Virus record (IMG/VR): IMGVR_UViG_3300048852_000117
Coordinates: 1 to 52,312 of that record
Origin: a virus
Lineage: Duplodnaviria; Caudoviricetes
Strand: one strand, 5' to 3'
Length of the DNA stretch: 52,312 bases
Each line of letters opens with the position of its first letter. Positions within the stretch are counted from its first letter, which is position 1. The translations under genes and the position numbers were made by a program. Under the pieces are notes generated by a model. The model made no database searches. It was not told the origin of the DNA and worked only from the letters and a program-made list of their open reading frames with translations. Of this stretch, positions 1 through 46,524 are shown one piece after another.

Positions 1-1107
1 ATGGGCACCATTACCGTTCGCAAGCGCCAGGACGGATCGTCGGCGTATACCGCGCAGATCCGCATCACTCGAAAAGGCGCGACAGTTTATCAGGAAAGCC
101 AGACCTTCGACCGCAAGACAGCCGCGCAGAACTGGATCAAGAAGCGGGAGGCCGAAATGGCAACCCCCGGCGCTATCGATAAGGTCACGCGCGGTGGAGT
201 AACGGTCAAGGCAATGATCGAGCGCTACCTGAAGGAGTACGAGAAGCTGCGACCGCTCGGCAAAACCAAGCGCGCAACACTGACGGCCATCGGCGAGACC
301 TGGCTCGGCGCACTGGAAGACCGCGACGTCACCAGCCAGAAGCTTGTCGAGTACGCCCTGCACCGGATGGAGTCGGACGGCATTCAGCCGCAGACAGTCG
401 GCAACGATTTGGCGCACCTCGGGGCCGTGCTGGCAGTGGCGCGCCCCGCCTGGGGATATGATATTGACCCGATGGCGATGCCGGACGCTCGGAAGGTGCT
501 CAAGAAAATGGGCGCGGTCACCCGGAGCCGTGAGCGCGAGCGCCGCCCCACCCTCCATGAACTGGACAAGATACTGAGCTACTTCGAGGAAATGAGGGCG
601 CGCCGCAAGCAGCAGATCGATATGGTCCGGGTCACGCTGTTCGCGCTGTTCTCGACTCGGCGGCAAGAGGAGATCACCCGCATCCACTGGGACTCGCTGG
701 ATGAGAGCCGGCAAGCGGCACTGATCACCGACATGAAGAATCCAGGCCAGAAGATTGGCAATGACATCTGGTGCCACATGCCCGATGAGGCGTGGCGCAT
801 TCTTCAGTCCATGCCAAAAGTAGAAGGCGAGTCGAGAGTCTTCCCCTACAACTCGAGATCTATCTCGGCATCATTTACCAGGGCGTGCCTGTTCCTTGAG
901 ATCGAAGACCTGCACTTTCACGACCTGCGCCATGACGGAGTGAGTCGGCTATTTGAAATGGGGTGGGATATCCCGAAAGTGGCCTCTGTATCCGGACATC
1001 GGGATTGGAACTCGATGAGGCGCTACACTCACCTGAGGGGACACGGCGACCCTTATACAGGATGGCCGTGGGTGGAAAGGGTTATCAATGGACCTGTGAT
1101 TCGCTGA
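1..1107 (+). CDS. int: Tyrosine recombinase (dusA-associated integrase type)
   Basis: Catalytic motifs STRRQEEI, HFHDLRHDG, SGHRDW..MRRYT; N-terminal arm-binding region. Confidence 0.95.
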   Translation: MGTITVRKRQDGSSAYTAQIRITRKGATVYQESQTFDRKTAAQNWIKKREAEMATPGAIDKVTRGGVTVKAMIERYLKEYEKLRPLGKTKRATLTAIGETWLGALEDRDVTSQKLVEYALHRMESDGIQPQTVGNDLAHLGAVLAVARPAWGYDIDPMAMPDARKVLKKMGAVTRSRERERRPTLHELDKILSYFEEMRARRKQQIDMVRVTLFALFSTRRQEEITRIHWDSLDESRQAALITDMKNPGQKIGNDIWCHMPDEAWRILQSMPKVEGESRVFPYNSRSISASFTRACLFLEIEDLHFHDLRHDGVSRLFEMGWDIPKVASVSGHRDWNSMRRYTHLRGHGDPYTGWPWVERVINGPVIR

Positions 1108-2284: not shown

Positions 2285-3150
2285 ATGGATCGCGTAGACA
2301 TATATAACTCGCTTGCGAAACACATTAACAACAAGGACGCTTTTTTAGACAGCTCAGATCTCTGCCAATTGATGTAGTTGGGGATCTTATGCTCGGCATA
2401 CCGGACGAATTCGATGCTGTTCGATCCATGCTTCCTGAAATGCCCCCTGAGCAAATCCAGAAAAACTGGAACGGCTCGTCAGGCTACGACCTTTTGTTGC
2501 AGAGTTGCGCTTTTATGCGGACTCTTGAGTGTGGAATAAATCGCTTTACAGGGCGCTCCCTCGACGGCTCTAAGATTCTCGACTTCGGCTGTGGGTGGGG
2601 AAGGCTCTTGCGCCTTCTGTACAAATTCACACCGCCGGAGAACATCTATGGATGCGACCCCTGGGCACAGTCTTTGGAGATATGCGACGAAAGTGGCATC
2701 ACCGCAAACTTGGCGCTGTCAGATTACCTTCCAACCGAGTTGCCGTTCCCTAATGCAAAGTTCGATTTCATCTATTCGTACTCCGTGTTCACCCATCTGT
2801 CAGAAAAAGCCGCACTGGCTGCAGTCACGGCCTGCCGCAAGCACATTGCCGATGATGGCTGTCTGGTGATTACCGTTCGGCCACGCTCCTACTGGGATGT
2901 CCATCCGGACTCCCAGAATTCGCTCGTTGATAAAGCTGAGATGATTGCATCCCACGATAGAAACGGTTTTGCTTTCACGCCTCATGCGGTCGGAACACCC
3001 GCAACCGTGGATGGAGAGATAACGTACGGTGATACGTCGATAACCCTTAATTATATGGCTCAAAACTGGAAGGACTGGGACGTTATAGGCACCGATCACT
3101 TCCTACAGGATCAATATCAAATGCTGGTGTTCCTACGACCCCGCCATTGA
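2285..3150 (+). CDS. Class I SAM-dependent methyltransferase moron; N-terminus out of frame at T6 (2341-2346), in-frame ORF 2389-3150
   Basis: ILDFGCGWGRLL and FDFIYSYSVFTHL motifs; RBS GAGGA before ATG 2285; antisense to the late operon, AT-richer. Confidence 0.8.
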
Positions 3151-10662: not shown

Positions 10663-13600
10663 TTAACCCCGACGTATGAGCTGGCGGGCTGGACCGTTAG
10701 TTTTTAGGTCGCGAAGGACCATGTTGTAGCCGTCACGCGCGCCCTTTTCCGCGGCCTGCTGGATACGGCTAAGGGTGGCGTCGTCGGTGCCGCCCTCAAA
10801 CGTGAACGACTGGTGAATCGCGGGCATGTTGGCTGCCGGGGTGGCACGGGTTGCCGCCGACACTGTAGAGACCTTGCTTACTGCCGAGCTGACGTAGCCG
10901 CCGTCGGCATACCCTTTGCGATTGGCGTTCATGCGTTCCAGGAACTCACGCGCGCCGGGCTGGCTGACGACCTCTTTCTTCACGACAAACTCACCGCCGT
11001 GCACCACGCCCATCGGCTGATACTTGCCGCCATTGCCGGTGTAGCCGCCATCCGAGAACCCGTATTGCGACGAGTAACCGGCAGCGGATGCACCGAGACT
11101 CGACGACTTCGCAGCAGCAGAGCCGGCAGCAAGGCCAGATCCACCGCCACCGAAGCCAGCAAACGCACCGATGGCGCTGCCGAGGAAGCCGACAGCTGCC
11201 TGACGCACCTGAATACGGATCAGGTCGGCGATGATGCCGTCTGCCAGGTCCTTGAAGGACAGTTTCCCGGTCCGGACGAAGTTGATGATCCCGTCTTCCA
11301 TGCTGCTGAACGCATTGGTGAACAGCTGTTGCGTTTGCCCGGACACGTCGCGGGCTTGCTCCAGGTAAGTCTGCATTGCAGACGATGCCCCGATGCGCCA
11401 GTCGCTCTGCGCCTTATCGACGTCGGCGTAGTACTGCGTCTGCATGGTGAGGCGGGTTTGCAGTGCCGATTGCAGCGCGGCCGTCTCCTTGGCGTACAGC
11501 TCGGGGCTGATACGCCCCTCGTTGCGCTGCTGGAGCAGGTTGTCCATCTGCGACTGGTACTGCTGCTGGATACTCAGCTGTTCCTGCAACCTGGCGCGCT
11601 GCTGCTCGCCCATGCCCAGGCCGGCCAGGTTGTTGCTGAGGCCGGTCTGGTCCTTGGCAAGCTGGCTTTGCAGGTTGGTCTGGAAGGCGGCAAGCTTCTG
11701 CGCCTCCTCTGTCGCCTTCTTGCGCAGCTCGGTATCCCGCTCTAGCTGGGCATTCTGTTTCTGCTGGGCGAGGTTCAAATCGGCCATCGCCAGAATCTGC
11801 TTCTGCGCGGCTGTCAGCGTTTTCTTTTCTTTCAGTTGCGCGATCTGAGCCTCCAGGTCGACGAGCTTCTTCTGCTCGGCGCCCATCGTCCTGATGGTGC
11901 CGTCCTGGGCCACCAGTTCCTTGCTCTGCTGCATCAGCACTGCATACCGCTGCCGAGCATCGTCCAGCAGCTTTTGGCCGGCGTCCTCCTGTGACCCTTG
12001 GGTCTTGCCGGAGCTCTTGTTGACGGTGGTGGATTCGTTGATCTGCGCGAGCGCCGCGTCGAGCCGCTGCTGCGGCGTCAGCGCAGGCCTCACGCCAGCC
12101 TTTGAAGGAGTGCCGCCCATCAGTCCGCCCGCCGGAGCCTGCTGAGGCGCGAGAAGCATGTTTCGCCCGGTCAGGAAGCTGGAGCCTTTGGAAATGTTGG
12201 CAGCGACCTCGATGACGCGGCGCATTTCCCGGATCTGCTTCGTGGCGCTCTCTTCGGCTGCTTTCGCGGCTTCTGCGTGCGACTTTTTGACCGCGTCCGT
12301 TGCATCTTTCGCCGCCTGCTCCTGGGTGTACAGTGCCAGCAGCTGCTTCTTCAGGGCCTCCTGTTGGACCTTGTCGCCCTCCTTGACCGCATCCTGGTAC
12401 TTCTTGAGCAAGTCAGTTTGCTCGGCAACGATCAACGCCTGGCTTCGCTGCGTGGCGGTCAGCCCCATCTTGGTCGAGTTGTAGGCGGCCTCGGTTCGCT
12501 CGTTCGCGCCAAGCAGATCGCGGGCCTCGGTGAGTTTCGCGATGTACTTTTCCCACTCGGCCAGCTGGGCTTTGGTCTGCGTACCCGACTGCGCCTGTGT
12601 TGCGTTCAGCGCATCCGAGCTTGCCTTCGCAGCCTTGCTCGCAGAATCGAGCCCGCTGAGCTTTTCCCCAAGATCAGCCGCATTCTTGCTGCTGGCCTGC
12701 TGGGTGGCGGCCAGTTCGGCGAGAGCCTTGCGGTACTCAGGGGTCAGCTTGGCATTGGTATCGATCCACTGCGTTACATTGTCCAGCGGGATTTTACCGG
12801 CCTTGACCTCAGCAATCATGCTGCGGAATTGGCCGGTGAACTCGCCAAGGCTGATACCGGTTTCCACTTTGTAGGCGAAGTCATCGAGCGCGGTACTGGC
12901 CTTCTCGAGTTCTTTGGCTTGCTGCTCAGCCCAGTTGATTTTTTGGAGGCGCTGCTGCTCGGCGCTCAAGGTCTTGAACTTGTCGATCGATTCGCTAACC
13001 GCAAGGCCCTGGTCAATAAGCGACTTGGTTGCCTCGTCGGAACTGTCCCGCATCAGAAACATGCTGGCAGCAACGGCGCCAGCCGCGACAGCTATCCCGC
13101 CCGGCCCACCCATAAAAGCCAGCAAGCCACGCTGAGCCGTCGCGAGCCCCGCTGCCGCTACTCTCGCTCGATCATCCGCCGCCGCCGCGATCAGTCGTGC
13201 TTCTGCGTATCGCCCTGCAGCCACGGTTTGGAGGACTGTGCCACGGTAGAGGACCATTTCCTGCTGTGCTAATGCTGCGGCAGACCTGGCCTTGATGGCG
13301 TCCGCATTAGCGGCGTTTAAGGTCGCTGAGGCATCGGCAATCGCAGCTGAGCGTGTCGCGATGTAGGCGTAAGCCACCTTTCCAAGCCTGTTTACCAGCA
13401 GCACTGCACTTGCTGCGGCCACACCCGACATTGCAGCGCCCACCACGTTAATAGTAGTGCTCAGCGACTCGGAATCCGCGGATAGCGCATCCATGGATTT
13501 GGATAGCGCTATGACCTTACTGGATATTGCGGCGCTCGCACCGCTTGCTTGATCAAGCCTGCCTACCAGTTGCGTGAAAGAGTTCCCCGCAGTAGTCAGG

Positions 13601-14643
13601 CTGTTGCCGATGGTCACGGAGGTCTTGTTGAAAAGAGCCTCTACAGCCTGCTCTTGCGCCTGTAGCGCCTTGACTACTGCATCTGCAGTGAGCAAGCCAG
13701 CGGCACCCAGGGCTCTGAGCTCGCCGACCGTTTTGCCCATGCCTGCCGCGATGGCTTGCGCCAGAGCGGGGGCCTGCTCCATGACGGAGTTGAGTTCTTC
13801 ACCGCGCAGCGTACCTGAGGCAAATGCTTGTCCGAGCTGAACAAGCGCTGCGCTTGCAGCTGAAGCAGACGCTCCGGATATCGCGAGGGTTTTGCTGATC
13901 GTTCCAACGACGCCGGCCACTCCCTTGCCCGTCAGGTTCAGCTCGCTCTGGTTCGTGGCGATCCGTTGATAAAGCTCGGCGGTAGCATTGAGTGGCTGAT
14001 AAGAGCTTTGCGCAATCGAGAACACAGCCCTCTGAGCAGCCGCCAACTCTTCTGCCCCTCCGGTTACGAGCTTCATCCGGTTGGTGAGCGTGCTATAGGC
14101 CTCGGCTGCATCATAGAATGCCTTGACGCTGAATGCGGCAGCCAGCGGCCCTGCAAGGCCAGCAGCCTGGGCCGCCAGAGATTTCACTTGGCGCTCAAGC
14201 CCCTGAACCTGTGTGGTGGCGTTGCGGGCATTTTGACCTGTAGTGTTGATCGAGCCTCCAGCTGCGGAAAGCGCTGCTGTCGATTTGCTGCCTGCTTGGT
14301 TCAAAGCCTCCAGCGCCTTACGGGCAGCCGCAAGCTTTGCTTCGGCGGCTGCTGCGTTGCTACCCATGGTTGAAACGCTTCCGGCAGCTCCGGCGATAGA
14401 CCCGCCGGCTTTCTTGCCAGCATCCCCTACCCCGTTCAAAGCGGTCCGCGCCGAGTTCAGTCCGGAAGCGGCGGAGTTTGCGGTCTTGGCGGCGTTCGCG
14501 AGACTGGCGGTCAGACCTGACATAACCGGCCCCACCCGCAGCCCTACCTCAGTCAAAGCTTCGAGCGCCTTGCGTACGGCCGCTACCTGCTGTTCCGCGC
14601 TGCGTCCATCAACCTCCAAGGCGAGTCGGGATGTGAGAGCCAT
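10663..14643 (-). CDS. Tail tape measure protein
   Basis: 1326 aa Ala-rich helical; QAFASGTLRGEELNSVMEQAP; lambda-type C-terminal GGYTGNGGKYQPMGVVHGGEFV. Confidence 0.96.
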   Translation of the reverse strand: MALTSRLALEVDGRSAEQQVAAVRKALEALTEVGLRVGPVMSGLTASLANAAKTANSAASGLNSARTALNGVGDAGKKAGGSIAGAAGSVSTMGSNAAAAEAKLAAARKALEALNQAGSKSTAALSAAGGSINTTGQNARNATTQVQGLERQVKSLAAQAAGLAGPLAAAFSVKAFYDAAEAYSTLTNRMKLVTGGAEELAAAQRAVFSIAQSSYQPLNATAELYQRIATNQSELNLTGKGVAGVVGTISKTLAISGASASAASAALVQLGQAFASGTLRGEELNSVMEQAPALAQAIAAGMGKTVGELRALGAAGLLTADAVVKALQAQEQAVEALFNKTSVTIGNSLTTAGNSFTQLVGRLDQASGASAAISSKVIALSKSMDALSADSESLSTTINVVGAAMSGVAAASAVLLVNRLGKVAYAYIATRSAAIADASATLNAANADAIKARSAAALAQQEMVLYRGTVLQTVAAGRYAEARLIAAAADDRARVAAAGLATAQRGLLAFMGGPGGIAVAAGAVAASMFLMRDSSDEATKSLIDQGLAVSESIDKFKTLSAEQQRLQKINWAEQQAKELEKASTALDDFAYKVETGISLGEFTGQFRSMIAEVKAGKIPLDNVTQWIDTNAKLTPEYRKALAELAATQQASSKNAADLGEKLSGLDSASKAAKASSDALNATQAQSGTQTKAQLAEWEKYIAKLTEARDLLGANERTEAAYNSTKMGLTATQRSQALIVAEQTDLLKKYQDAVKEGDKVQQEALKKQLLALYTQEQAAKDATDAVKKSHAEAAKAAEESATKQIREMRRVIEVAANISKGSSFLTGRNMLLAPQQAPAGGLMGGTPSKAGVRPALTPQQRLDAALAQINESTTVNKSSGKTQGSQEDAGQKLLDDARQRYAVLMQQSKELVAQDGTIRTMGAEQKKLVDLEAQIAQLKEKKTLTAAQKQILAMADLNLAQQKQNAQLERDTELRKKATEEAQKLAAFQTNLQSQLAKDQTGLSNNLAGLGMGEQQRARLQEQLSIQQQYQSQMDNLLQQRNEGRISPELYAKETAALQSALQTRLTMQTQYYADVDKAQSDWRIGASSAMQTYLEQARDVSGQTQQLFTNAFSSMEDGIINFVRTGKLSFKDLADGIIADLIRIQVRQAAVGFLGSAIGAFAGFGGGGSGLAAGSAAAKSSSLGASAAGYSSQYGFSDGGYTGNGGKYQPMGVVHGGEFVVKKEVVSQPGAREFLERMNANRKGYADGGYVSSAVSKVSTVSAATRATPAANMPAIHQSFTFEGGTDDATLSRIQQAAEKGARDGYNMVLRDLKTNGPARQLIRRG

Positions 14644-18337: not shown

Positions 18338-19339
18338 CTAAACCACCAGAGTGACTTTTTTAAGCGAGTATTCGGCCACACAGCGGCAGCGGATGCGCTC
18401 GGAGAGAGGTGCGCCGAGCGAGGTATCGCACGGAAACATCAGCATCGCGCCGCTTGGGGAGGTGAATGCCTGGCCGGCCTCAGTCGTCTGCCCGTTCAGT
18501 GCACCGTGGGTGCGACGCTCGCGGCCATCCATTCGAGTGCGCCACTTCTTCACATAGGTGTACTGCCCACCACTGCGAGCCGTGAGCTGCTTCCAGCCTT
18601 CCTCTCGGCCTTTGTTGTAGGCTTCGGCTATGTTGGTCTGAGCCAAGGCTTCGGCATGCAGATCCCGCAGCCGCTGCGCATAGGCAGACGCTGCTCGCTC
18701 AAGCGTTTCCTTCGGAAGCGGCTTGCCCGCATCGATAGCGGCGCTCACTACGGAGTCGAAACGCGGATCGCGTCGCTTGCGGGTAAGGTACTCACGAAGT
18801 TGGCCGGGGTCACCGCTACTGAGCTGGTCGCGGGCGCGCTCTACTGCCTCGGTCGCATTGCCAGTCAGCCCAAGGACGCCTCCCGAACGGCGGCCGGTCT
18901 GCTTGCTCCTGCGCCCGACCATATTGAGGGCAATTGTCCGAGAACTATCGCCTCGCAGTCGGCCCTGGGTAATCGCAATGCGTGCGGCGTCCATCTGGTC
19001 GCGCGCAGCCTGCTCCCGGATGTCGCGAGCCTGGCTGGACAAGAATGCATTGACGCTTTCCGCGCTCATGTCCAGCTCTCGGCGCACGCCCGGCATACGG
19101 ATGCCTGCCAATTCCCGAGCAGCGCCGGAGGCGAAGGCTGACCGCAGTCGATCCAGAAACAGTGCCAACAGGCCAAGGGCAATGATCTCTTCCAGTCTGG
19201 ACTCATCCCCATCTTCGATGGCCTGCTCGATCTCCGTGACGCTGACCGACTTGGCCACCATAGCGATTTGGTCCAGATATGCCTGCTGCGCCGCTGGCTC
19301 AAGCTTCTCTACCTCGGCCTGGACCTCGGAAGCCTTCAT
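18338..19339 (-). CDS. Head morphogenesis protein (Mu gpF / SPP1 gp7 family)
   Basis: C-terminal KKWRTRMDGRERRTH..LNG...FP......IRCRC. Confidence 0.85.
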   Translation of the reverse strand: MKASEVQAEVEKLEPAAQQAYLDQIAMVAKSVSVTEIEQAIEDGDESRLEEIIALGLLALFLDRLRSAFASGAARELAGIRMPGVRRELDMSAESVNAFLSSQARDIREQAARDQMDAARIAITQGRLRGDSSRTIALNMVGRRSKQTGRRSGGVLGLTGNATEAVERARDQLSSGDPGQLREYLTRKRRDPRFDSVVSAAIDAGKPLPKETLERAASAYAQRLRDLHAEALAQTNIAEAYNKGREEGWKQLTARSGGQYTYVKKWRTRMDGRERRTHGALNGQTTEAGQAFTSPSGAMLMFPCDTSLGAPLSERIRCRCVAEYSLKKVTLVV

Positions 19340-20301: not shown

Positions 20302-21255
20302 TCAGGCCGCTGGTGCGGTGATTTCATCGAGGTAGAAGAACGCACCCGGCAGACGGATCTCGGTGCCGCCGGTACGCGCGATGATGCCGGTTTCGAAGCC
20401 CATGATGGACTTCTGGCGGGCAGCCAAGACGCGACGAGGCATCGGCAGGTGGAAGCGAACCACCTCCGGGTCCTTACGGTAGGCGACCAAGCGACCGCCG
20501 CCATCAGCAGAAGTGTTGCGCGCCTCGCGCAGCGGCTGAATGTCCAGCGGCTGGCCGGTTTCGGCGGTGTAGATGTTGTTGCGGCGGATGTACTCGAGCA
20601 CGGTCATGAAGCCGTCGCCAGCACCCATGCGTCGGGTAGCCACGTCACGGAACGCTTCGGGAGGCATACGCAGGGTGTCAGCCCATTCGACTTCCTCGGA
20701 GTTCTCGCGAACACCGCCAAGAGCGAAGTTCACGTCGGCCATGATCTGGTCAACGGTCTTATTGGCCCAGAAGATGCCGGTACCGGCACCCGATGCGTCC
20801 GCGCGCTGCACTTGGCCGTTATTCAGCAGGCCGGTCCAGCCCTTCTCGGCCGAACCGATCATGGCGATGTCGTTGAGCAAGCGCTCTACCTTGTCCGAGG
20901 CGCTGACGGCCTTGGTGTCGTTCAGGTTCACGCCGTAGATCGCAGCCTGATTCACTTCTTCGAGGTTCCACTCCCAACCGGAGCCGATCATGGCGAAGTC
21001 GTGCGAGGCTTGATCGCGGGTCACCTGGTTGAACGGCATGTCGGTACCGGCGCCGCTCAGGAACTTGGCTTCGCCCGCCGCATCGACGGTGAAGAACGTG
21101 GTGCCGATTGCCCATGGCTGACCTTCGGTTACTACAGGCACGTGAGCGCCATAGTTGAAGGTTGGGTAACGGCGCTGGTAGACGCGTGTCTCGATATTCC
21201 GGCCTTGGGCCAGAACGAACGGAAGCGCAGCCTGTGCGTCTTCGAATTGTTTCAT
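20302..21255 (-). CDS. Major capsid protein (DUF2184-like)
   Basis: 317 aa; GWTGLLN and ARTGGTEIRLP motifs; after decoration gene. Confidence 0.9.
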   Translation of the reverse strand: MKQFEDAQAALPFVLAQGRNIETRVYQRRYPTFNYGAHVPVVTEGQPWAIGTTFFTVDAAGEAKFLSGAGTDMPFNQVTRDQASHDFAMIGSGWEWNLEEVNQAAIYGVNLNDTKAVSASDKVERLLNDIAMIGSAEKGWTGLLNNGQVQRADASGAGTGIFWANKTVDQIMADVNFALGGVRENSEEVEWADTLRMPPEAFRDVATRRMGAGDGFMTVLEYIRRNNIYTAETGQPLDIQPLREARNTSADGGGRLVAYRKDPEVVRFHLPMPRRVLAARQKSIMGFETGIIARTGGTEIRLPGAFFYLDEITAPAA

Positions 21256-21772: not shown

Positions 21773-22906
21773 TTAGGCCTGGGCTGGGCGGTGAGCGGTC
21801 TGCATGTCAGTGATCATCTGCAGGCGGGCCTTTTCGGATTCGTCGCCGACAGTCTTGCTGTCCTGCTGAATCATGTGCTGGCGGAACGGGTCGTTGCCCG
21901 GAGCCTTGGCGGCGTCCTCGACCAGAATTTCGAAGCGCGCATCGATGTAGGCGTCCGGCTTGCCAGCGATTGCCGCATCACCCAGCTTGGCTACGACAAC
22001 AGCCTTGCGGATGTCTGCGTCGGTCTTACCGGTGTAGTCGGCGTCTGCGATGGCTTTGGCCTTGCTGATCAAGTCGGCCCGCGCGGTCACGCGCTTGTCG
22101 ATGTCGGCGTCGCTCAACTGCTTGGCCTTCAAGCTGTCGATCTCGGCGTCTTTCTTTGCCAGGTCAGCATCCTTGGCAGCCAGCGCAACGGCGTGCGCAT
22201 CGGTCAGGGTTTTGATGTTCACCCCGGCGTCGGCCAGCTGCTTGGTCAGCTTGTCGATTGCCTGGGCACCTTGGTCAGTGGTCTGGACGGACAGGCCATC
22301 AACAATGACCGTACGCAGTGAATCAGCCATGTCATGGCCTCCTTTGGGGGTTAGTTGCTTGTTGTCACCGATGCGAAGTTGTTCGCCGCCCCGAGCGCGA
22401 TGCTCCAGGCTGAGGTGATTCATCTTCATGGGGCCGAGATAGCAGTCGTAATGCTCGCCGTCGTCGGTTGTGCCGTCCTGGAAGACCACTTCGGCGCCAT
22501 AGCCCATGGAGAGCTCGCGCTTGCCAGCATCGAAGTCGGCGATGGCCTTGGCATCCATCAGTACCAGCGGCACCTTCACGAACTGGCCGTCCCGCACCAC
22601 GTCGCCGCCGGTCTGGCCGATGGCGAGGTCTTTCCAGTTCTGCGAGTTGACGCCGTCGCCGCCTGGGTGGCCGTTGGTCATCGGGCGGTAGGCGTAGGAC
22701 TGCATGGCGTCCTTGTGGAAGACCGAGCTTTCAGGGCGGTACACCTTCACAATCGGCTTGTCGCGCAGTCCGTGCTGGTTGTCTGGGTCAACCTCGGTGC
22801 CCAGATAGTCCTGGATGCCCGTGCGAGCCACCCGGGCTTCGGCCACAAGGTATCCGTCCGCGGTGCGCCGAACGCCCGAGACTGGTACGGAATCTGTGAG
22901 AATCAT
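21773..22906 (-). CDS. Prohead protease-scaffold (DUF2213-like)
   Basis: DGYL..ARVARTGIQDY, TNGHP, GKRELSMGY, NHLS...RARGG; coiled-coil C-terminus. Confidence 0.9.
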   Translation of the reverse strand: MILTDSVPVSGVRRTADGYLVAEARVARTGIQDYLGTEVDPDNQHGLRDKPIVKVYRPESSVFHKDAMQSYAYRPMTNGHPGGDGVNSQNWKDLAIGQTGGDVVRDGQFVKVPLVLMDAKAIADFDAGKRELSMGYGAEVVFQDGTTDDGEHYDCYLGPMKMNHLSLEHRARGGEQLRIGDNKQLTPKGGHDMADSLRTVIVDGLSVQTTDQGAQAIDKLTKQLADAGVNIKTLTDAHAVALAAKDADLAKKDAEIDSLKAKQLSDADIDKRVTARADLISKAKAIADADYTGKTDADIRKAVVVAKLGDAAIAGKPDAYIDARFEILVEDAAKAPGNDPFRQHMIQQDSKTVGDESEKARLQMITDMQTAHRPAQA

Positions 22907-22908
22907 TA

Positions 22909-24726
22909 CTACTCCTTGAGCTTGTCCTGCCAGTTCTCGACGACTTCCGCGAAGATCTCAGGACCCAGCTCGATCACGCCCCGATATGGCTCAACCTTGC
23001 TCAGGTCAACCGTTCCAGGCTCGTAGGTGAAGGTGATGTGCGGCTGATACTCCGGCCAGTCCCATGACGCGCCGGCCTCAATGATCGAGACATGACGCCA
23101 AGCTAGTTCGGAGCTGTTGAACAGCAGCACGACCGCGCCCTCGCCGAACCGCTCGATCAGGCGGGCGCCGCCAGGCGCGATTGACAACTTCCCGTCTCGG
23201 TCGCCGGACCAGGAATCACCGACCTTCATCCAGTTGACGGCCCTGCGGCTGTAGGCCACCGTCACGTGCAGGTCATCTGCCGGCAGCGTGGTCTCGAAGC
23301 CTTGAGACTTGGCCCAAGCGATGATGTCGGCAGCGTTGGTGACCGTCCGGGAGACGTAAAGGGTGCGTGGCGCGGCGTCGGTGATCCGAGTTGCGCCTGC
23401 CTGCTGGACGCCTGACTGCGGCACATCATCCCCGTCCTCCTCGTCAGGCAGCTCGCTGCCGAACTCAGAGATGGCCGACTCAAGGCCGGGCACTACACCG
23501 TTCTCGACCAGCAGCGTGACAGCCGCCTTGCTCAGGGCGTCTTCAGGGAACAGGCCGGAGTCCTTCAACACCTTGATGGTGTCGGCGGTCGTCTTGCCGA
23601 TGTCCGATTTCTCCTTCGCGGTGGACTGCCACAGAGGCGCCCAGGCGTAGTGAATCTCCGATGGGCGACTGCCCAGGGCAGACCGGATCAGACATTCGTC
23701 GAACAAGTACAGCGCTGGTGCCGTCTCCAGCTCCTGCATGGCCTGCACGCGGTCGTAGTAGTTGCGAAGGTCAGACTCGCCCGTGGCACTCATCCCAGCC
23801 GGCGCCTGACTCAACAGGCGGGTGGCTGGAATGTCGGCAGCACCTGAAACAACCTGCAGGAAGCGGTCGAGGATGTCAGGCAGCGTGCCGAAGCTCGCCG
23901 ACTTGCTCTCGTACTCCTCTTCCTTGTCGAGGATCAGGGTGCCGTTGATGCCCTTTGCCATCGCGGCCAGGCGCAGTCGCTCAAGAATCTGCTTCTCGTA
24001 CGCCTTGTCCTGCATGTTCTGCATGAAGTCGGGGATACGGATCACGTCGACCTTCGCCTCGAAGATGAGGCTGGCGATATTCGCCATGGTTGAGTCAGCG
24101 TGTTTGACCGCTTCCATCACGGCGAGCAGCACCGAGTCGCCCCATCCCTGTTCGACACCCATGGCCAGGTCAGAGTCAGGATGGCGCGCGCCGATGAACT
24201 CGATCAGGCGTGATGGGTGAATCTGGATTGATCCGCCGGCCAGGGTGTAAGCCTTGGGCCTACCATAGCGTTCGGACTGCGGGTCTTGCTCGATCTCGGT
24301 CGGATGCAGATTGCGACGGGTCATCACCGTGAGGTACTTGATGCCGCCCGCCCTGATGCGGGTGAAGTCCAGAGGCTGCGACGGATCGCGCTCGCCTGTG
24401 CCGATGAAGACCGCAGCCCCGCCGAACAGACGAGCCTTGATCATGGCTTCGAGAACCTTGGCCTTGATGCCAAGACGCTTCTCTTCCGCTTCGATCCTCT
24501 CGATCTGTTTCTTGTCAGCCTGCCAGTTGCGCCACTTGCGGCAAGAGTCCATCGCGGGGATATCCACGATCTTGCGTGGCAACCAGGCCCCTCGGTAGGC
24601 GTTTACGAGCTCTTCGTCGGTCATGAGTGCGGGGGCGTAGGTCGACCCGACGGACTTGTCTCGCTCAGTGCCGAGATTCGCCACCAGGTTGACGAGCTTG
24701 TCGCTCAGGAATCGGATAGCGCCCAT
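22909..24726 (-). CDS. Portal protein (DUF1073-like) fused to a C-terminal Acb1-like 2H phosphoesterase
   Basis: Portal motifs ARLFGGA and ADIPATRLL..APAGMSATGESDLRNYYD; last 155 aa hold two HxT motifs (LHVTVAYS, PHITFTY). Confidence 0.88.
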   Translation of the reverse strand: MGAIRFLSDKLVNLVANLGTERDKSVGSTYAPALMTDEELVNAYRGAWLPRKIVDIPAMDSCRKWRNWQADKKQIERIEAEEKRLGIKAKVLEAMIKARLFGGAAVFIGTGERDPSQPLDFTRIRAGGIKYLTVMTRRNLHPTEIEQDPQSERYGRPKAYTLAGGSIQIHPSRLIEFIGARHPDSDLAMGVEQGWGDSVLLAVMEAVKHADSTMANIASLIFEAKVDVIRIPDFMQNMQDKAYEKQILERLRLAAMAKGINGTLILDKEEEYESKSASFGTLPDILDRFLQVVSGAADIPATRLLSQAPAGMSATGESDLRNYYDRVQAMQELETAPALYLFDECLIRSALGSRPSEIHYAWAPLWQSTAKEKSDIGKTTADTIKVLKDSGLFPEDALSKAAVTLLVENGVVPGLESAISEFGSELPDEEDGDDVPQSGVQQAGATRITDAAPRTLYVSRTVTNAADIIAWAKSQGFETTLPADDLHVTVAYSRRAVNWMKVGDSWSGDRDGKLSIAPGGARLIERFGEGAVVLLFNSSELAWRHVSIIEAGASWDWPEYQPHITFTYEPGTVDLSKVEPYRGVIELGPEIFAEVVENWQDKLKE

Positions 24727-26012
24727 TAGGAAACACCTGCGAGGGAGTACTTGTTGATTGGGTACTCTTTGTGAATGAAGTAGCCACCAGCGTCAGGCCG
24801 GTGGTCGTTGCCCTGCTTCTTGTCGGGCTCGCCGTTGGTGCCCCAGATCTGCTGCTCAAGGTCGTCGGCATAGGTCGGGCACTTGTCTGCGTTCACGCGG
24901 TACCGGCGCTGCCCTGCTGCGTTGCAGAACATCGCGTTCATCGAGTTGATGCGATCCTTCACCGGCGGGTTGCTAGCCGGGGCGGCGACGATGAAGCCAG
25001 CCTGCTTGAGCAGGGAAATGTCTGTCTCACTAGCGCGCACTGACTTGCGGGAATCACCAGAGGCGTCCGGATAGACCCGAATCTGGCGCGTGTTGCGGTA
25101 GTCGTTGCCGTCGTACAGCCAGTAGCGCTCTTTGATCTGCTTGATCATGTCGGGCGTGTCGTAGCCGTTGATGATCTCGTCCACCGCATGAGGCAGGCCC
25201 AGGCGCTTGACGTGGACCACGGCCGACATCTTGCCGACGTTGAAGTCCATGCCGATGAACAGCGGTTCAGCAGGCTGAATTGCCTCTTGGCTACCGTTCA
25301 GCTTGCGGTCATAAGCGGTGTAGATCGTCCCGGACGTCAGGTTCACGAACTGGCCGTTCAGGTAGGCCATGATCAGTTGCTCGGGATACGAGTCCATCAG
25401 CGACGGGATATAGTCAGGCGGCAGGTTCAGCTCGTTGTCGAACGTGCTCGCCTGCACTAGGCCATACATGCCGTTGAGCGCCGGCTTCTCGCGCAGCTGC
25501 TTGACGAACTGCTGGAAGACGAACTTGAACCCTTCCGGAGTCGTGGTGACGTCTACGCCGTTCTTGAGCCCAGCCACGTTGTAGCGCATCCGGGCAATGA
25601 TCTTGCGCCAAGCATGCTCAGCCTTCAGCTTGGGCAGAACGTCCAGCTCGTCGACCAGAGCGTGACCGATCTTGAAGCCCACGATGGTTTGTGGCTTTTC
25701 CATCGACCGACAGATCGCTGTGCTTCGATACTGTCCGCCACTGTAGAACTCGACCTCTTTGTCGCTCTCCTTCGTCTTGACCTTCAGGCCCCAATCGAAC
25801 GCCACTTCCTCGATCGTCGGAAAGAAGATGTCCCGAATCTGCGGGTAGGTCGGAGCGAAGTAGCCGGAGTTGATGCGGGGCCATTCCCATACGTGCTTGC
25901 AGATGCCAGCGCAGCCCACCCACGTCTTGCCAGAGCCAAAGCCTGCAACGAAGCCGCGGAACTTGTGCTGCATCTGGAGGAATCGAGCCTGCGGGACGTT
26001 AAGCGTCGGCAT
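24726..26012 (-). CDS. terL: Terminase large subunit
   Basis: Walker A GFGSGKT, Walker B LVDELD, nuclease IGMDFN and DHRPDA. Confidence 0.95.
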   Translation of the reverse strand: MPTLNVPQARFLQMQHKFRGFVAGFGSGKTWVGCAGICKHVWEWPRINSGYFAPTYPQIRDIFFPTIEEVAFDWGLKVKTKESDKEVEFYSGGQYRSTAICRSMEKPQTIVGFKIGHALVDELDVLPKLKAEHAWRKIIARMRYNVAGLKNGVDVTTTPEGFKFVFQQFVKQLREKPALNGMYGLVQASTFDNELNLPPDYIPSLMDSYPEQLIMAYLNGQFVNLTSGTIYTAYDRKLNGSQEAIQPAEPLFIGMDFNVGKMSAVVHVKRLGLPHAVDEIINGYDTPDMIKQIKERYWLYDGNDYRNTRQIRVYPDASGDSRKSVRASETDISLLKQAGFIVAAPASNPPVKDRINSMNAMFCNAAGQRRYRVNADKCPTYADDLEQQIWGTNGEPDKKQGNDHRPDAGGYFIHKEYPINKYSLAGVS

Positions 26013-26460
26013 CAGGCTTCCTCGCGTCCACCACGTCGACCTGCACGCGGGTGGGCGGCACGTTGTCGTGAGGGTTCTCGTTCTTGGTCTGGCGGTTGAC
26101 GTAGATGTCGCCAACCTCCTTGGCCGCCTGCTCCAGCAGTTGGGCAGTGAGAGCCATGTTCTTCATGCTCTCAGCCTTCTCGGCCATCCGCCCCAAAGCA
26201 CGAAGCCGGTAAGCGCGGTGCGCGATAGGGATGCTCGCAGTTTCAGCTGTGAAGCGCTCTCGGCAGACATGGAACAGGTCAGCCCAGCGCTTTGCCAGGC
26301 CACGACCTGCGTACTTCGTAGGGTCATGGCCCTCGCAGGTCTGACGACTCACGTCTATGCCGAATTCTTTCTTGACAGCCTCCACCACCTGGGAAGGTGT
26401 ATCGAAGCAGGCCAGAGCCTGAACAATGAAGGCTTTGACCTCGCTTCGTAGTGCTGCCAT
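25999..26460 (-). CDS. terS: Terminase small subunit (DUF2280-like)
   Basis: VKAFIVQALACFDTPSQV motif; overlaps terL start. Confidence 0.85.
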   Translation of the reverse strand: MAALRSEVKAFIVQALACFDTPSQVVEAVKKEFGIDVSRQTCEGHDPTKYAGRGLAKRWADLFHVCRERFTAETASIPIAHRAYRLRALGRMAEKAESMKNMALTAQLLEQAAKEVGDIYVNRQTKNENPHDNVPPTRVQVDVVDARKPDADA

Positions 26461-26491: not shown

Positions 26492-27115
26492 TCAGGCCGA
26501 CTTGAGCAGGCAGGTTCCGCAGGCCCTCGAAATGTTGATCTTGCCCACCTCGGCAGGCTTGTTTGCTGCATCCACCAGGGCTTGAACGTCTTCGCTCGCC
26601 CCATAGCGACGGACGACACCGACGAACTCTTCCACGTCGTGGCCTTGAAGCTTGAGCTTGGGCATGCCGTCCTGGGTGAACTTGGGTGCGCCATATTGAT
26701 CGGTCGCTTGGGCGATGTGATACAGCTCATGCTCGACCAGCGCGCAGAATTCAGCGTCGGAGCACTGAGCGCAGTAGTCAGCAGCGAGCGTGATGATGAA
26801 TTCGGGTACAGAGCCGAACCAGTCGAACATCTGTTGTTCCATCCGGGCTTTCTGCCAGCCGCCGGCGCGGAACGCTACCTGCTCTGCCTGACCCAGCACT
26901 GTGCGGCCCTGCTTGTTGAAGCTGGACGACGCCCACATTACGCGAACGTCTGCATCGAGCAGATGAGCATGATCCGGGTTGTGGATGCTTCCGGTATCCG
27001 CGAGCACTTCGACCTTGAGCCATTCCCACACCTCAGGCGCCGGAGTAAGCCGTATACCGAAGTCAGACAGGTCCGACAGCTCAAGCAGCGACGCTGGAGG
27101 TGCTGGGCGGGTCAT
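26492..27115 (-). CDS. Putative phage metallopeptidase
   Basis: LVEHELYH (HExxH) and GHDVEEF motifs. Confidence 0.8.
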   Translation of the reverse strand: MTRPAPPASLLELSDLSDFGIRLTPAPEVWEWLKVEVLADTGSIHNPDHAHLLDADVRVMWASSSFNKQGRTVLGQAEQVAFRAGGWQKARMEQQMFDWFGSVPEFIITLAADYCAQCSDAEFCALVEHELYHIAQATDQYGAPKFTQDGMPKLKLQGHDVEEFVGVVRRYGASEDVQALVDAANKPAEVGKINISRACGTCLLKSA

Positions 27116-27278
27116 GGGCTTATTTCGCTCCGCAGTTCGGACAGATCGGCCCGGTATCAGTTTGATCCTGGACATGTCTAGCTCCATTGCCCGGCCAACG
27201 TCTTGGGCAAATTGATTGCTTATGATCATGTTGCTCAGCACCTAGAAGCCTCCAGCGATCCAGCTGGAGGCCAGTAGC

Positions 27279-28130
27279 TTAGTAGAAAGTGTGTACAACC
27301 TGATCGAAGGTCTTCCATTCTCCATTATTAGGATAGAAAACCTTGACTGGCTTGATATTTGGTTTGAAACCAAACCGTGCCCACACTACCTTCTGAGTGA
27401 CGATAGAAAAACTACCGTTTTCCTGTATACGAGCATACGAACCTGGGTAGCCGTCCGTCTGCGTATGCCAGACCGCAACACCGGCTTGGTTGTATACAAC
27501 AAAGTTGCCATCCGCTTGCATGGCTGCAAACGCACCACCCTTTTCATGCGTATAACTAGCCCACAGTACAACCCCATTTTCCCCATAGAGCACAAGGTTG
27601 CCGTCGCCTTGGAATACCAGATTGGAATTTCCTACGGTAAACGAGTCCCCCGGGTAGATCATGGTGCCGGGCGGGATCATCACAGCTGGGAGGTCAGGGG
27701 TAACAGGAATTGATTTCTTGCTAGCCCAAACTGGAATTGCATCAATGATTACGATATTTCCATCATCTTGTAGTTGAAGAAACGTACGCAACATCGCTGC
27801 GGTTGTGTCTTTGTCCGGTGGGGTACTGTTATCAGTAGACCACAGGCGGGACCGCTGGTTATCTGAAACACAAAGAGCATAGTTGAGGTAAGCAATTGAT
27901 ACCTTAGCTGTCATGCCTCGCTTCGGATATACCTCCCCCGAATATGGTACGTCGGCATTACCTGCCCAAACTGGATCGGTTCCATCCCACAAAACCAAAT
28001 TGCTATCTTCCTGAAAAATCAGTCGGAAACGCTTATTAGGCGAATCCAAATACTGATTGAACACCATTTCGGTCTTTGGATTTAAGATTGACAGTCCATT
28101 TTCCGACATTGAGTTTAGGAAATATCCCAT
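27279..28130 (-). CDS. llpA: Lectin-like bacteriocin (LlpA / putidacin L1 family)
   Basis: Tandem MMBL motifs QEDSNLVLW, QDDGNIVI, QGDGNLVLY, QADGNFVVY, QENGSFSI; C-terminal WARFG; no signal peptide; AT-richer. Confidence 0.9.
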   Translation of the reverse strand: MGYFLNSMSENGLSILNPKTEMVFNQYLDSPNKRFRLIFQEDSNLVLWDGTDPVWAGNADVPYSGEVYPKRGMTAKVSIAYLNYALCVSDNQRSRLWSTDNSTPPDKDTTAAMLRTFLQLQDDGNIVIIDAIPVWASKKSIPVTPDLPAVMIPPGTMIYPGDSFTVGNSNLVFQGDGNLVLYGENGVVLWASYTHEKGGAFAAMQADGNFVVYNQAGVAVWHTQTDGYPGSYARIQENGSFSIVTQKVVWARFGFKPNIKPVKVFYPNNGEWKTFDQVVHTFY

Positions 28131-35676: not shown

Positions 35677-35747
35677 TAGCACTGCTGTTTTACACAAAAC
35701 AAGGAGTTTGATTAGCAGTGCTGTTTGCGGAAATATCAGCGCTGCTA
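35677..35747. promoter_or_regulatory. OR: three repressor operators
   Basis: TAGCACTGCTG (35677), TAGCAGTGCTG (35713), CAGCGCTGCTA (35737); same motif recurs at OL. Confidence 0.85.
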
Positions 35748-35760
35748 CTTAATCGCGCAC

Positions 35761-36564
35761 ATGAAGAAACCCACTCGAACTCCCCTCACCCAATCCCAGC
35801 TGGATGATGCTGAGCGGCTGCGCAACATCTACCTCAAGCGCGTCCAGGAATCCCGGGCGAGAAACGACCATCCTGTCCTAAATCAAGCCGAGGTCGGTGA
35901 GCGCTGTGAATGGAAGTCCCCGCAAAGTGCGGTGAGCCAGTACCTGAATGGCAAGGTGGCATTGAATCTCGACGCATTGGTACGCCTGGCAAAAGCCCTG
36001 GACTTCGAACCGGCGGATGTCAGCCCCGTCTTGGCTGCAGGAATCTCGCGTGCGGCCGATGAACCATTAACTGCTCCAAGTCATCACTCGCCTGCCGCCA
36101 ACACCCCTCTTCCGGACGGCGCGGACACGGATCTCGAACACCAGTACGCTTTTGTCCCTCAGCTAACGGCCAAGGCCGCCGCCGGCCTGGGCCATGACAA
36201 TCCCCATGTCGAGAGCAGATCAACCCTGGCGTTCAAACGGGAGTGGCTACGGTATCGCGGGGCGAACCCAAAGAACCTGATGGTCATTTACGCAGCTGGC
36301 GACAGCATGTGGCCGACGATCAACGATGGCGACGTTCTGCTGGTGGACAAATCCAAGGTTGAGCCCATGGATCGGCAGGTGTTCGTCCTGACGAGCGCTG
36401 AAGGGGCAATTGTGAAGCGGATGGTTCAGGCGCCGCTGGGTGACTGGATCATTCGCAGTGACAACGAGGACAAGACAGAGCACCCGGATCGCTTGCTACT
36501 GCGTAGCGATGTGAACGAGCACCGCATCATCGGCCAGGTCATCTGGCGGGGCGGGGATTTGTGA
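35761..36564 (+). CDS. cI: CI-like repressor with S24 autopeptidase
   Basis: HTH with QSAVSQYLNG; AAAG cleavage site, GDSMWPTI (Ser) and IVKR (Lys). Confidence 0.95.
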   Translation: MKKPTRTPLTQSQLDDAERLRNIYLKRVQESRARNDHPVLNQAEVGERCEWKSPQSAVSQYLNGKVALNLDALVRLAKALDFEPADVSPVLAAGISRAADEPLTAPSHHSPAANTPLPDGADTDLEHQYAFVPQLTAKAAAGLGHDNPHVESRSTLAFKREWLRYRGANPKNLMVIYAAGDSMWPTINDGDVLLVDKSKVEPMDRQVFVLTSAEGAIVKRMVQAPLGDWIIRSDNEDKTEHPDRLLLRSDVNEHRIIGQVIWRGGDL

Positions 36565-46260: not shown

Positions 46261-46524
46261 ATGTTCAAGAAAGTATTCGATCAGTCCGGCACCTTCCAAG
46301 CCTATTACGCGGCAGTTCGCTGGCTTGAACAGAGTGGATACAGCTGCGGATCTACCTGCGTCGACCGCCCCTGCGGAATCCTAAAGGGCAGTTTCAGCAT
46401 CGCCAAGTGGCGGAACCTTACCAAGAAGGAAGTCGCTGAACTGGACGGCAAGCTGGATGGAGATTTCCGAGAAGGACCTATGACTGTGTACCTGAAAAAA
46501 GCACCAGACTCGGAGGCCGTATGA
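46261..46524 (+). CDS. Hypothetical phage protein
   Basis: RBS GGAG; IAKWRNL..LDG..GDFREGP motif. Confidence 0.7.
   Translation: MFKKVFDQSGTFQAYYAAVRWLEQSGYSCGSTCVDRPCGILKGSFSIAKWRNLTKKEVAELDGKLDGDFREGPMTVYLKKAPDSEAV

Follow-up and report, generated by a model that had tools for sequence, protein, structure and literature searches.

The portal protein of this complete lambda-like Pseudomonas prophage carries, on a disordered acidic tether of ~27 amino acids, an Acb1 domain with an intact HxT/HxT tetrad that, on balance, would probably hydrolyse CBASS signals, mainly late. The gene lies at positions 22909..24726 of the window (the whole 52,312-nt stretch of DNA analysed) on the minus strand, as do all features described below, and according to the ORF list and its translation it encodes 605 aa followed by a TAG stop. 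The first-pass annotation had proposed a portal joined in one frame, through an acidic linker, to a 2H phosphoesterase that resembles Acb1 and bears two HxT motifs. This architecture is borne out by sequence, profile and predicted fold, and every string quoted for it is found in the 605-aa translation: ELPDEEDGDDVPQSG at aa 427–441, LHVTVAYS at aa 486–493, PHITFTY at aa 562–568 and IFAEVVENW at aa 591–599. The phosphoesterase had been placed at 22909–23376, which is the 155-aa C-terminal domain together with the stop codon; past IFAEVVENW the protein continues to ...QDKLKE (aa 605).

The portal part spans aa 1–422 (23461..24726) and comprises clip, stem, wing, crown and C-terminal helices, as delimited by PF06381, the AF2 model and VIA. 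In Pfam, PF06381 (Phage_portal_3, DUF1073) matches aa 39–385 with an E-value of 9e-109. The profile phrog_146, labelled 'portal protein', extends across almost the entire fusion (aa 4–601 against profile positions 20–586 of 587, E 1.6e-159). The pLDDT of the AF2 model is mostly >90 up to approximately aa 420, and the final helices occupy aa 395–409 and 415–422. By VIA, the portal model (10..428) is closest to the Pam3 portal (8hds_A, Z 30.1, 414 aligned residues), followed by many other portals with Z values of 15–25. The PF06381 profile, the portal fold and the position of the gene directly after that of the large terminase all identify this part as a portal. By analogy with the Pam3 homologue, which was solved as a dodecamer, it would form a dodecameric ring at a single vertex of the capsid.

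The linker (aa 423–449, GSELPDEEDGDDVPQSGVQQAGATRIT, 23380..23460) was delimited from pLDDT, the alignment of relatives and the translation. It is acidic and disordered, with pLDDT <50 at aa 435–449 of the AF2 model. The segment that separates the PGLE motif from DAAPR varies, in 82 aligned relatives, from 12 to 103 aa, with a median length of 41 and a median net charge of -7, and it is the least conserved portion of the protein (majority-residue fraction of 0.26, compared with 0.51 in the portal and 0.66 in the Acb1 domain). A conserved protease site was sought in the linker and rejected: the motif [SAG]xE falls within the first 20 linker residues in 51 of the 82 relatives, a number that rises to 61 when the whole linker is counted, and both counts are uninformative because the linkers are acid-rich.

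The C-terminal domain (aa 450–605, 22912..23379) is assigned as an Acb1-type 2H phosphoesterase from PF23474, AF2, Foldseek and VIA. The Acb1 profile PF23474 matches aa 454–602 over its full length (positions 1–144 of 144) with an E-value of 1e-43 and 149 bits, against a cut-off of 27 bits. A phmmer comparison with FBB1 Acb1 (7t26) gives an E-value of 3.1e-12 with both HxT motifs aligned. The AF2 model of the domain alone has a pLDDT of 89.5, and its best Foldseek matches are the Acb1 structures 7t26/7t27 (E 2.3e-8, TM 0.69/0.77), followed by a phosphodiesterase of phage BCSR5 (9q2y/9q2g, for which no paper was found by title or abstract) and, below both, LigT. The 2H fold expected of the domain was also recovered by VIA, in which the model (454..603) matches FBB1 Acb1 7t27 with Z 16.7 and an rmsd of 1.9 Å over 134/140 residues, and 7t26 with Z 15.8.

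Acb1 is reported to act through an HxT/HxT tetrad (H44, T46, H113 and T115 in T4), nucleobase-stacking aromatics, an adenine-reading Glu (E141) and a C-terminal lid, the further residues named being Y12, W74, F107 and W147 (PMC9117128). The first HxT of the fused domain, H487-V-T489 (23260..23268), was located by translation and by alignment to FBB1 Acb1 and P0272, a T4-like 57B homologue in which it corresponds to H43/T45. The second, H563-I-T565 (23032..23040), aligns with PHITLSY of both 7t26 and P0272. Of the corresponding positions, Y457 (of the LYV motif), W557 (aligned to F106 of P0272) and W599 (aligned to the lid Trp, W146) are present. The stacking residue equivalent to T4 W74 has no placement, as the alignments conflict, and the adenine-reading Glu is either E590 or E597, on which the HMMER and BLAST alignments disagree. 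The C-terminal lid is ~4 residues shorter here.

Conservation was assessed in 151 sequences, consisting of the query and the 150 best representatives at 50% identity. The catalytic positions are almost without exception (H487 in 151/151, T489 in 150/151, H563 in 150/151, and T or S at 565 in 149/151), and R522, R544, E590 and N464 are each present in all 151. Y457 is retained in 149/151 and an aromatic residue or His at 557 in 150/151; the column of the lid Trp is gapped in 14/151 relatives. In a full-length alignment of 82 sequences, all 12 invariant columns fall in the Acb1 part. Judged by its sequence conservation, the Acb1 domain is under purifying selection.

The 2H fold, the HxT/HxT arrangement and the size of ~150 aa are shared with FBB1 and T4 Acb1, and so, by alignment, are the LYV tyrosine, the aromatic residue at the F107 position and the Trp lid. 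Those enzymes are free-standing, whereas the domain here hangs by a tether from the C-terminal end of a portal and is a product of a late head operon, and the fused clade has invariant residues of its own (R522, N464 and G519-G520). Identity to the characterised enzymes is 26–30%. Neither an enzyme assay nor virion proteomics of a portal-fused Acb1 was found in the literature searched, so that the substrate range is drawn from these homologues. On that basis the domain would hydrolyse CBASS-type cyclic di- and trinucleotides, as T4 and FBB1 Acb1 do.

The same architecture, portal–linker–Acb1, is found in gp3 of Pam3 (PDB 8HDS; PMC9942802), with motifs HVT and HIS, although Pam3 is a cyanobacterial myophage whereas the sequence here is a lambda-like Pseudomonas prophage. 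The Pam3 portal 8hds matches aa 8–604 with an E-value of 4.3e-171, and the Acb1 domain by itself matches the 8hds sequence with an E-value of 7e-35. The Pam3 virion model, however, includes only 442/621 residues; its alignment to the model of the present protein stops at residue 431, the Acb1 domain is missing, and the domain-only model has no Foldseek match to 8hds among the matches listed of 144. The word 'phosphoesterase' appears nowhere in the text of the Pam3 paper (PMC9942802), the supplementary information of which may give the gp3 residues that were built. The fused domain of Pam3 was thus neither seen nor discussed in that work. Its absence from the virion model means that in mature heads it either moves freely or is missing.

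The genes on either side are those of head assembly. Upstream of the portal, the large terminase gene (24726..26114) matches phrog_10250 and phrog_2, both 'terminase large subunit' (E 1.5e-56 and 1.3e-55), and its stop codon overlaps the portal ATG (TAATG). Downstream, a DUF2213 gene (21773..22906) with a scaffold-like C-terminal half begins with an ATG 2 nt past the portal stop, and its AAGGAG ribosome-binding site is made up of the two final Acb1 codons. This gene matches phrog_530, 'head maturation protease' (E 2.8e-102), and PF09979, DUF2213 (E 1.5e-46); the protease label comes from PHROG only, the Pfam family being uncharacterised, and the sole PDB sequence match of the protein is a scaffolding protein (E 0.0015). 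The genes for terminase, portal-Acb1 and the putative head protease or scaffold DUF2213 are in tight translational coupling in that order. All 75 of the related loci encode a DUF2213 homologue downstream in the same orientation, at a distance of ≤30 nt in 43. T4 acb1 (57B), by comparison, does not adjoin the prohead protease gene; its neighbours in a T4-like phage are a tail-fibre chaperone and a dNMP kinase.

The portal-Acb1 architecture is far beyond chance. At least 2083 protein clusters, of 332–1059 aa, match the Acb1 domain, and the fusion recurs in thousands of phages, on three unrelated portal families. Among 39 atypical relatives, PF06381 is present in 24, PF04860 in one (P0187) and PF06074 (Portal_Mu) in one (P0249). 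In 7 of the 39 an ADP-ribosyltransferase domain comes after portal-Acb1, and in 2 a Zeta_toxin domain does; P0200 represents an eighth ADP-ribosyltransferase case, lacking a portal domain. One relative joins a portal fragment, Acb1 and PBECR3, and another NUDIX, Acb1 and DUF2213. Direct fusions of Acb1 to DUF2213 (P0246, P0259 and P0193) and to Peptidase_S78_2 (P0200 and P0224) also occur in this set.

The fusion is not new: it is common, annotated in public databases and discussed in print. The suspicion that automated annotation already displays it proved correct, as many of the clusters are named "anti-CBASS protein Acb1 family protein". Fusions of 2H domains to MuF and portal proteins have been described, and their packaging in the head and injection for the degradation of host immune nucleotides predicted (Iyer et al. 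2017, PMC5512222; 2022, PMC9503650). The model of packaging and delivery advanced in the first-pass annotation is therefore not original to it, being set out in the available text of both papers. The protein here shares with the effectors described there an effector domain on a head-internal carrier (portal or MuF) within a virion gene cluster, and represents the minimal two-domain form of that polyvalent class, to which some relatives add ADP-ribosyltransferase, Zeta-toxin, PBECR3 or NUDIX domains. As far as the accessible text of those papers goes, they offer prediction without experiment, predate the finding of the prohead-protease trigger and leave Acb1-protease fusions unmentioned. Among the listed publications pairing Acb1 with a portal, judged mostly by title, no description of a fusion was found. 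Literature searches for a fusion of anti-CBASS and portal proteins returned nothing relevant, and those for Acb1 together with DUF1073 returned nothing. The text of Hobbs 2022 does not contain 'portal', and its supplementary lists may include fused homologues.

In the favoured reading, the main work of the tethered enzyme would be done late, in the producing cell, since it would be made from the late head operon, along with the neighbouring DUF2213 protein, as the head-maturation machinery appears; the constant downstream position of the DUF2213 gene and its fusion to Acb1 in some relatives speak for this. Up to 12 copies may also lie inside each prohead or capsid, because the portal C-termini point inward. 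Prohead proteases are reported to activate CD-NTases, with signalling starting ≥14 min after T4 infection (PMC12991175), and CBASS escape mutations are reported to map to virion assembly genes (10.1101/2023.05.21.541620). The protease-trigger evidence was obtained with T4 gp21 and E. coli CBASS, and thus outside the present phage group. Late co-expression does not account for the fusion itself, because a free-standing gene in the operon would have the same timing, and recurrent joining to head-internal proteins is more in keeping with packaging than with late co-expression.

A tentative extension, for which we see perhaps some chance, is that Acb1 is retained where portal and protease genes meet in head operons, for the reason that CBASS is triggered by the head-maturation protease itself. 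Fusion to the portal or the protease would then make Acb1 whenever and wherever the trigger is made, hold Acb1 and protease together through mosaic recombination, and co-assemble the two into the prohead. In a bolder form of this proposal, the protease would free the Acb1 domain inside the head and so carry it to the next cell as well. In the accessible text of the protease-trigger papers 'portal' is absent and Acb1 figures only as the T4 gene or its knock-out; searches by title or abstract for a linkage between Acb1 and the prohead protease found nothing in the literature.

An alternative reading, which appears unlikely, holds that the portal serves as a capsid-targeting carrier, so that 12 copies of Acb1 per head exit with the DNA by way of portal and tail and degrade CBASS signals at the next infection, possibly after the head protease has cut Acb1 free in the linker. 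Such cleavage would be needed, because the portal itself stays in the capsid. In favour of delivery, portal C-termini face the head interior; in the Pam3 portal the barrel is innermost, followed outwards by crown, wing, stem and clip (PMC9942802). The occurrence of the fusion on three unrelated portal families is also in favour of delivery. So is the presence of the same Acb1 clade in multi-effector architectures, which match the polyvalent head-packaged pattern outlined in PMC5512222 and PMC9503650. The linker is disordered and Glu-rich, and T4 gp21 is reported to cut after Glu in I/LxE motifs (PMC12991175); the occurrence of [SAG]xE in 51/82 relatives adds weak evidence. A precedent is provided by Gp15 of ICP3, a virion ejection protein reported to block CBASS (10.1101/2025.07.23.666291), and this preprint was the only relevant literature found on the packaging of Acb1 in virions. 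Gp15 resembles the present protein as a virion structural protein with an anti-CBASS role, but according to the available text it is a stoichiometric inhibitor of CapV that does not degrade cGAMP, is ejected and not a portal, and belongs to an unrelated sequence family. Against delivery, the sole solved virion with the fusion (Pam3, 8hds) was modelled without the Acb1 domain, and the channel of that portal, at 24–64 Å (PMC9942802), is by our estimate probably too narrow for a folded domain. CBASS signalling is reported to begin late, at a time when the portal-Acb1 produced in the infected cell should far exceed 12 delivered copies, and print sources again yielded neither virion proteomics nor an assay of the fused form. 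Delivery before phage gene expression is less compelling because the Pam3 model lacks the domain and CBASS is reported to be late. Early delivery agrees less well with the data than the other option raised in the first-pass annotation, in which the enzyme is positioned at proheads under assembly.

Two further explanations concern the activity of the domain and the form in which it is made. It is quite improbable that the domain heals RNA ends as a LigT/CPDase-like 2',3'-cyclic phosphodiesterase, acting on tRNA or mRNA after cleavage by host anticodon nucleases, which is the role implied by the older 'RNA ligase' label of phrog_755 and of T4 57B annotations. The match to phrog_755, 'RNA ligase' (E 6.5e-21), points in that direction, as do the labels 'RNA ligase' or '2',3'-cyclic phosphodiesterase' on many T4-like homologues and the LigT structures among the fold matches (E ~3e-5), and an RNase-type role was also considered by Iyer et al. 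in 2017, in the text available (PMC5512222). However, the fit to Acb1 (rmsd 1.9 Å, Z 16.7) is far closer than that to LigT (TM ~0.5, rmsd >6 Å), the Pfam families LigT_PEase and 2_5_RNA_ligase2 remain below cut-off (16 bits against 23–27), and no RNA ligase or polynucleotide kinase was noticed in a non-exhaustive scan of the window genes with PHROGs and Pfam. T4 57B itself is reported to have been demonstrated to be Acb1 (PMC9117128). It is still harder to credit that a nested gene, starting at a GTG in the linker (V441, 23404–23406), gives a free Acb1 of 165 aa that does the work while the fusion is incidental. The GTG is in frame and preceded at 11 nt by GAGGAGG, and pairing of the 15 nt before it with the anti-Shine-Dalgarno sequence amounts to -11.7 kcal/mol. 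Of 78 loci, however, only 15 have a linker start in frame behind a ribosome-binding site of similar strength, compared with 26 in the +1 frame and 2 in the +2 frame. A conserved internal translation start was rejected on these counts, and since they show no conservation, the start signal in the linker is a chance product of acidic GAG/GAC/GGx codons.

The provirus record has no match to PF18144 (SMODS), and none of the 6 Pseudomonas genomes with a strong Acb1 match contains a CD-NTase (PF18144) above cut-off. Over 301 Pseudomonas genomes, PF18144 is above cut-off in 20 and Acb1 in 6; the former rate predicts ~0.4 positives in six genomes, so the 0/6 result is without statistical power. A single sub-threshold PF18144 match (E 4.1e-5) was seen in genome G187; it is not listed in the 301-genome scan.

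If the enzyme is active, a large group of temperate phages that infect Pseudomonas, rhizobia and further Proteobacteria has an anti-CBASS function built into an essential structural gene, where it would be hard to lose and easy to overlook. Portal-borne Acb1 offers a clean system in which to ask whether the counter-defence enzymes of phages already work on arrival with the particle or have to await late gene expression. It likewise lends itself to a test for genetic coupling between a counter-defence and the phage protein that sets off the alarm.

The portal gene (22909..24726, minus strand) encodes, by translation of the ORF, a single 605-aa product in which a portal, an acidic linker and an Acb1 domain follow one another. 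In Pfam searches PF06381 (Phage_portal_3) covers aa 39-385 (E 9e-109), and PF23474 (Acb1) covers aa 454-602 with all 144 profile positions (E 1e-43, 149 bits against a 27-bit cut-off). The PHROG family phrog_146, 'portal protein' (a profile of 587 positions), aligns to aa 4-601, which indicates that the fused form is the norm in that phage family. The first-pass annotation had described this protein as a portal fused to an Acb1-like 2H phosphoesterase, and both the observation and the domain assignment are borne out by Pfam, phmmer and the AF2 fold. All of the sequence strings it quoted occur in the translation, and its coordinates, 22909-23376, correspond to the final 155 aa plus the stop codon.

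The identity of the C-terminal domain is supported by several comparisons. A phmmer search of PDB sequences recovers the Acb1 of Erwinia phage FBB1 (7t26, E 3.1e-12), and the alignment brings both HxT motifs into register. When the domain is modelled by itself with AF2 (pLDDT 89.5), Foldseek ranks 7t26 and a second FBB1 Acb1 structure, 7t27, highest (E 2.3e-8, TM 0.69/0.77). In the full-length model (pLDDT 88.8), aa 454-603 superimpose on 7t27 with Z 16.7 and an rmsd of 1.9 A over 134/140 residues (VIA). Hobbs et al. 2022 (PMC9117128) define Acb1 by its 2H fold and its HxT/HxT tetrad, together with stacking aromatics and a lid at the C-terminus. Alignment to a T4-like 57B (T4 acb1) homologue places the catalytic tetrad at H487/T489 and H563/T565, the F107 equivalent at W557 and the lid tryptophan at W599, while the equivalents of W74 and E141 are ambiguous. 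In a set of 151 sequences, the query and its 150 best representatives at 50% identity, the tetrad residues are conserved in 149-151, and R522, R544, E590 and N464 do not vary. A full-length alignment of 82 sequences has 12 invariant columns, all within the Acb1 domain, a count biased towards the domain by the choice of sequences for similarity to it. From sequence and model we conclude that the domain is a predicted catalytically competent Acb1-family enzyme with a presumed substrate range. An alternative role in RNA-end healing is very improbable: the Acb1 structures match far better than LigT, which appears in the Foldseek order only after Acb1 and the phage BCSR5 phosphodiesterase, and the LigT profile matches fall below threshold.

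The window, a 52,312-base IMG/VR provirus record rated complete by CheckV, is a lambda-like siphovirus prophage. It carries an integrase (1..1107), tail fibre and tip protein J, a tape measure (10663..14643), a tail terminator, a MuF-like head morphogenesis protein (18338..19339), an adaptor, a major head protein (20302..21255), a DUF2213 protein with the PHROG name 'head maturation protease' (21773..22906), the large terminase TerL (24726..26114), and NinG, a replication module and a CI-like repressor. The closest isolated phages, the Pseudomonas syringae phiPSA1/psageB2/MR15 group, show ~76% nucleotide identity over parts of the head module; the C-terminal domain of psageB2 is 83% identical in amino acids to the Acb1 domain here. 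Close coupling joins the TerL, portal fusion and DUF2213 genes: the stop codon of TerL and the portal ATG share bases (TAATG), and 2 nt separate the portal stop from the DUF2213 ATG. At 22904-22917 (minus strand) the AAGGAG ribosome-binding site of the DUF2213 gene consists of the last two Acb1 codons (K604, E605), followed by TAG, TA and ATG, so that the C-terminus of the enzyme is constrained by translational coupling.

Other genes of the prophage include possible cargo. A 515-aa protein (36700-38247, plus strand) beside the CI-like repressor (35725-36564) has Schlafen AlbA_2 and HATPase_c_4 domains, a partial match to the PADLOC 'pAgo' model (E 4.6e-37, profile 54-448 of 1121) and a match to phrog_12156, 'DNA helicase'. 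The GC content around this gene is the lowest in the window (0.498 at 36-38 kb), and the protein is probably a moron carried by the prophage for defence or regulation. Just upstream of the terminase region, an unusual place for such cargo, are a bulb-type lectin (B_lectin) protein of phrog_19296 (unknown function) and a match to phrog_513, 'transposase' (27279-28130 and 26492-27241, minus strand). A SAM-dependent methyltransferase with a weak PADLOC mad2 match (E 1.8e-9) adjoins the integrase, and elsewhere the prophage encodes a C-5 cytosine DNA methylase; these two genes (2389-3150 and 46521-47444, plus strand) may be anti-restriction or epigenetic morons.

The fusion is widespread. At E <= 0.001 the Acb1 domain is matched by at least 2083 of 3064 candidate 90%-identity clusters of 332-1059 aa, and among the matches listed all 120 clusters carry both PF06381 and PF23474. 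The named ones are mostly 'anti-CBASS protein Acb1 family protein', 'phage portal protein' or 'phage-related protein (TIGR01555 family)', in line with the first-pass suggestion that the fusion may already appear in automated annotation. An exhaustive representative search gives 2048 50%-identity clusters at E <= 0.001 (607 at E <= 1e-30), and at least 548 of 600 candidate IMG/VR stretches were confirmed. The best 150 representatives include 79 plain portal-Acb1 proteins, 21 extended by at least 100 aa beyond that layout, 11 near free-standing Acb1 proteins and 11 in which Acb1 comes first and more sequence follows. Partner domains were taken from Pfam scans of 39 atypical representatives, exclusive of the extended P0230, P0240 and P0251. 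Three different portal families carry the same Acb1 clade, PF06381 (24 of 39), PF04860 (P0187) and PF06074 Portal_Mu (P0249). Other partners are ADP-ribosyltransferase (8), Zeta_toxin (2), DUF2213 (P0246, P0259 and P0193, the last also with NUDIX), Peptidase_S78_2 (P0200 and P0224), ChaB (3), PBECR3 (1) and Pyr_redox_2 (1), and several long C-terminal extensions (100-450 aa) of the scanned relatives have no Pfam match. P0213, P0223 and P0244 were also noted for partner domains; the head-protease fusions are of the DUF2213 or XkdF type. One portal-Acb1 gene, 44% identical to the query, is on a 2300-base contig (L092) of a MAG labelled Candidatus Woesearchaeota, more likely a mis-binned bacterial phage fragment than an archaeal virus.

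The fusion, its annotation and a delivery model are all already public. Iyer et al. 2017 (PMC5512222) mention 2H domains fused to MuF or portal that could degrade nucleotides of host counter-invader systems, and Iyer et al. 2022 (PMC9503650) take such fusions to suggest head packaging and injection against SMODS and other nucleotide signalling. No experiment on a portal-fused Acb1 was found in the literature on Acb1 with portals, virion packaging or prohead protease. Injection of head-enclosed Acb1 into the next cell is consistent with the recurrent fusion to head-internal carriers and further effector domains, the expected look of a cargo system, and has a precedent in ICP3 Gp15, described as an ejected virion protein that counters CBASS (10.1101/2025.07.23.666291). 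However, the solved virion portal of cyanophage Pam3 (8hds), which is homologous over the full length (E 4.3e-171), is modelled for 442 residues, and its match to the full-length AF2 model stops at chain residue 431. Despite a sequence match at E 7e-35, 8hds is absent among the Foldseek ranks shown (of 144 matches) for the domain-only model. In mature Pam3 heads, then, the domain has either been lost or is mobile enough to be averaged out. The Pam3 channel measures 24-64 A (PMC9942802), and exit of a tethered or folded domain is unlikely without cleavage and unfolding. According to Hobbs and Kranzusch 2026 (PMC12991175), CD-NTases are activated by prohead proteases cutting an activation loop, with signalling in T4 starting at least 14 min after infection. 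If CBASS fires this late, 12 imported enzymes would add little to portal-Acb1 made in bulk. The delivery step is somewhat weakened by these observations, and we consider it unlikely.

The tether allows one further alternative, a free Acb1 from a nested start. AF2 confidence is <50 at aa 435-449, and across relatives the linker varies from 12 to 103 aa (median 41, median net charge -7) and is poorly conserved (0.26; portal 0.51, Acb1 domain 0.66). At 23404-23430 (minus strand) GAGGAGG is followed 11 nt on by an in-frame GTG (V441), resembling the start of a free 165-aa Acb1. However, a conserved internal start was rejected, as such sites are rarer in frame (15/78 loci) than in the +1 frame (26/78). 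The signal is probably a by-product of acidic codons, and a nested product seems scarcely credible.

A late role in the producing cell is the reading that we favour, by a modest degree. The Acb1-type phosphodiesterase would be co-translated with the head-maturation machinery and act there, with up to 12 copies also enclosed per prohead. The link to the putative protease is striking. Every one of the 75 loci with enough sequence has a same-strand DUF2213 homologue downstream, which starts at most 30 nt away in 43 of them, 31-300 nt away in 15 and at a greater distance in 17, and in some relatives Acb1 and the putative protease form one polypeptide. The protease status of DUF2213 comes solely from its PHROG label, and the prohead-protease trigger was shown for T4 and E. 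coli, systems other than this prophage; T4 acb1, unlike the Acb1 domain here, does not adjoin the gene for the prohead protease, gp21. The constant downstream DUF2213 and the single-polypeptide relatives suggest, tentatively, that Acb1 may be kept beside a CBASS trigger, the putative head protease, as a linked antidote.
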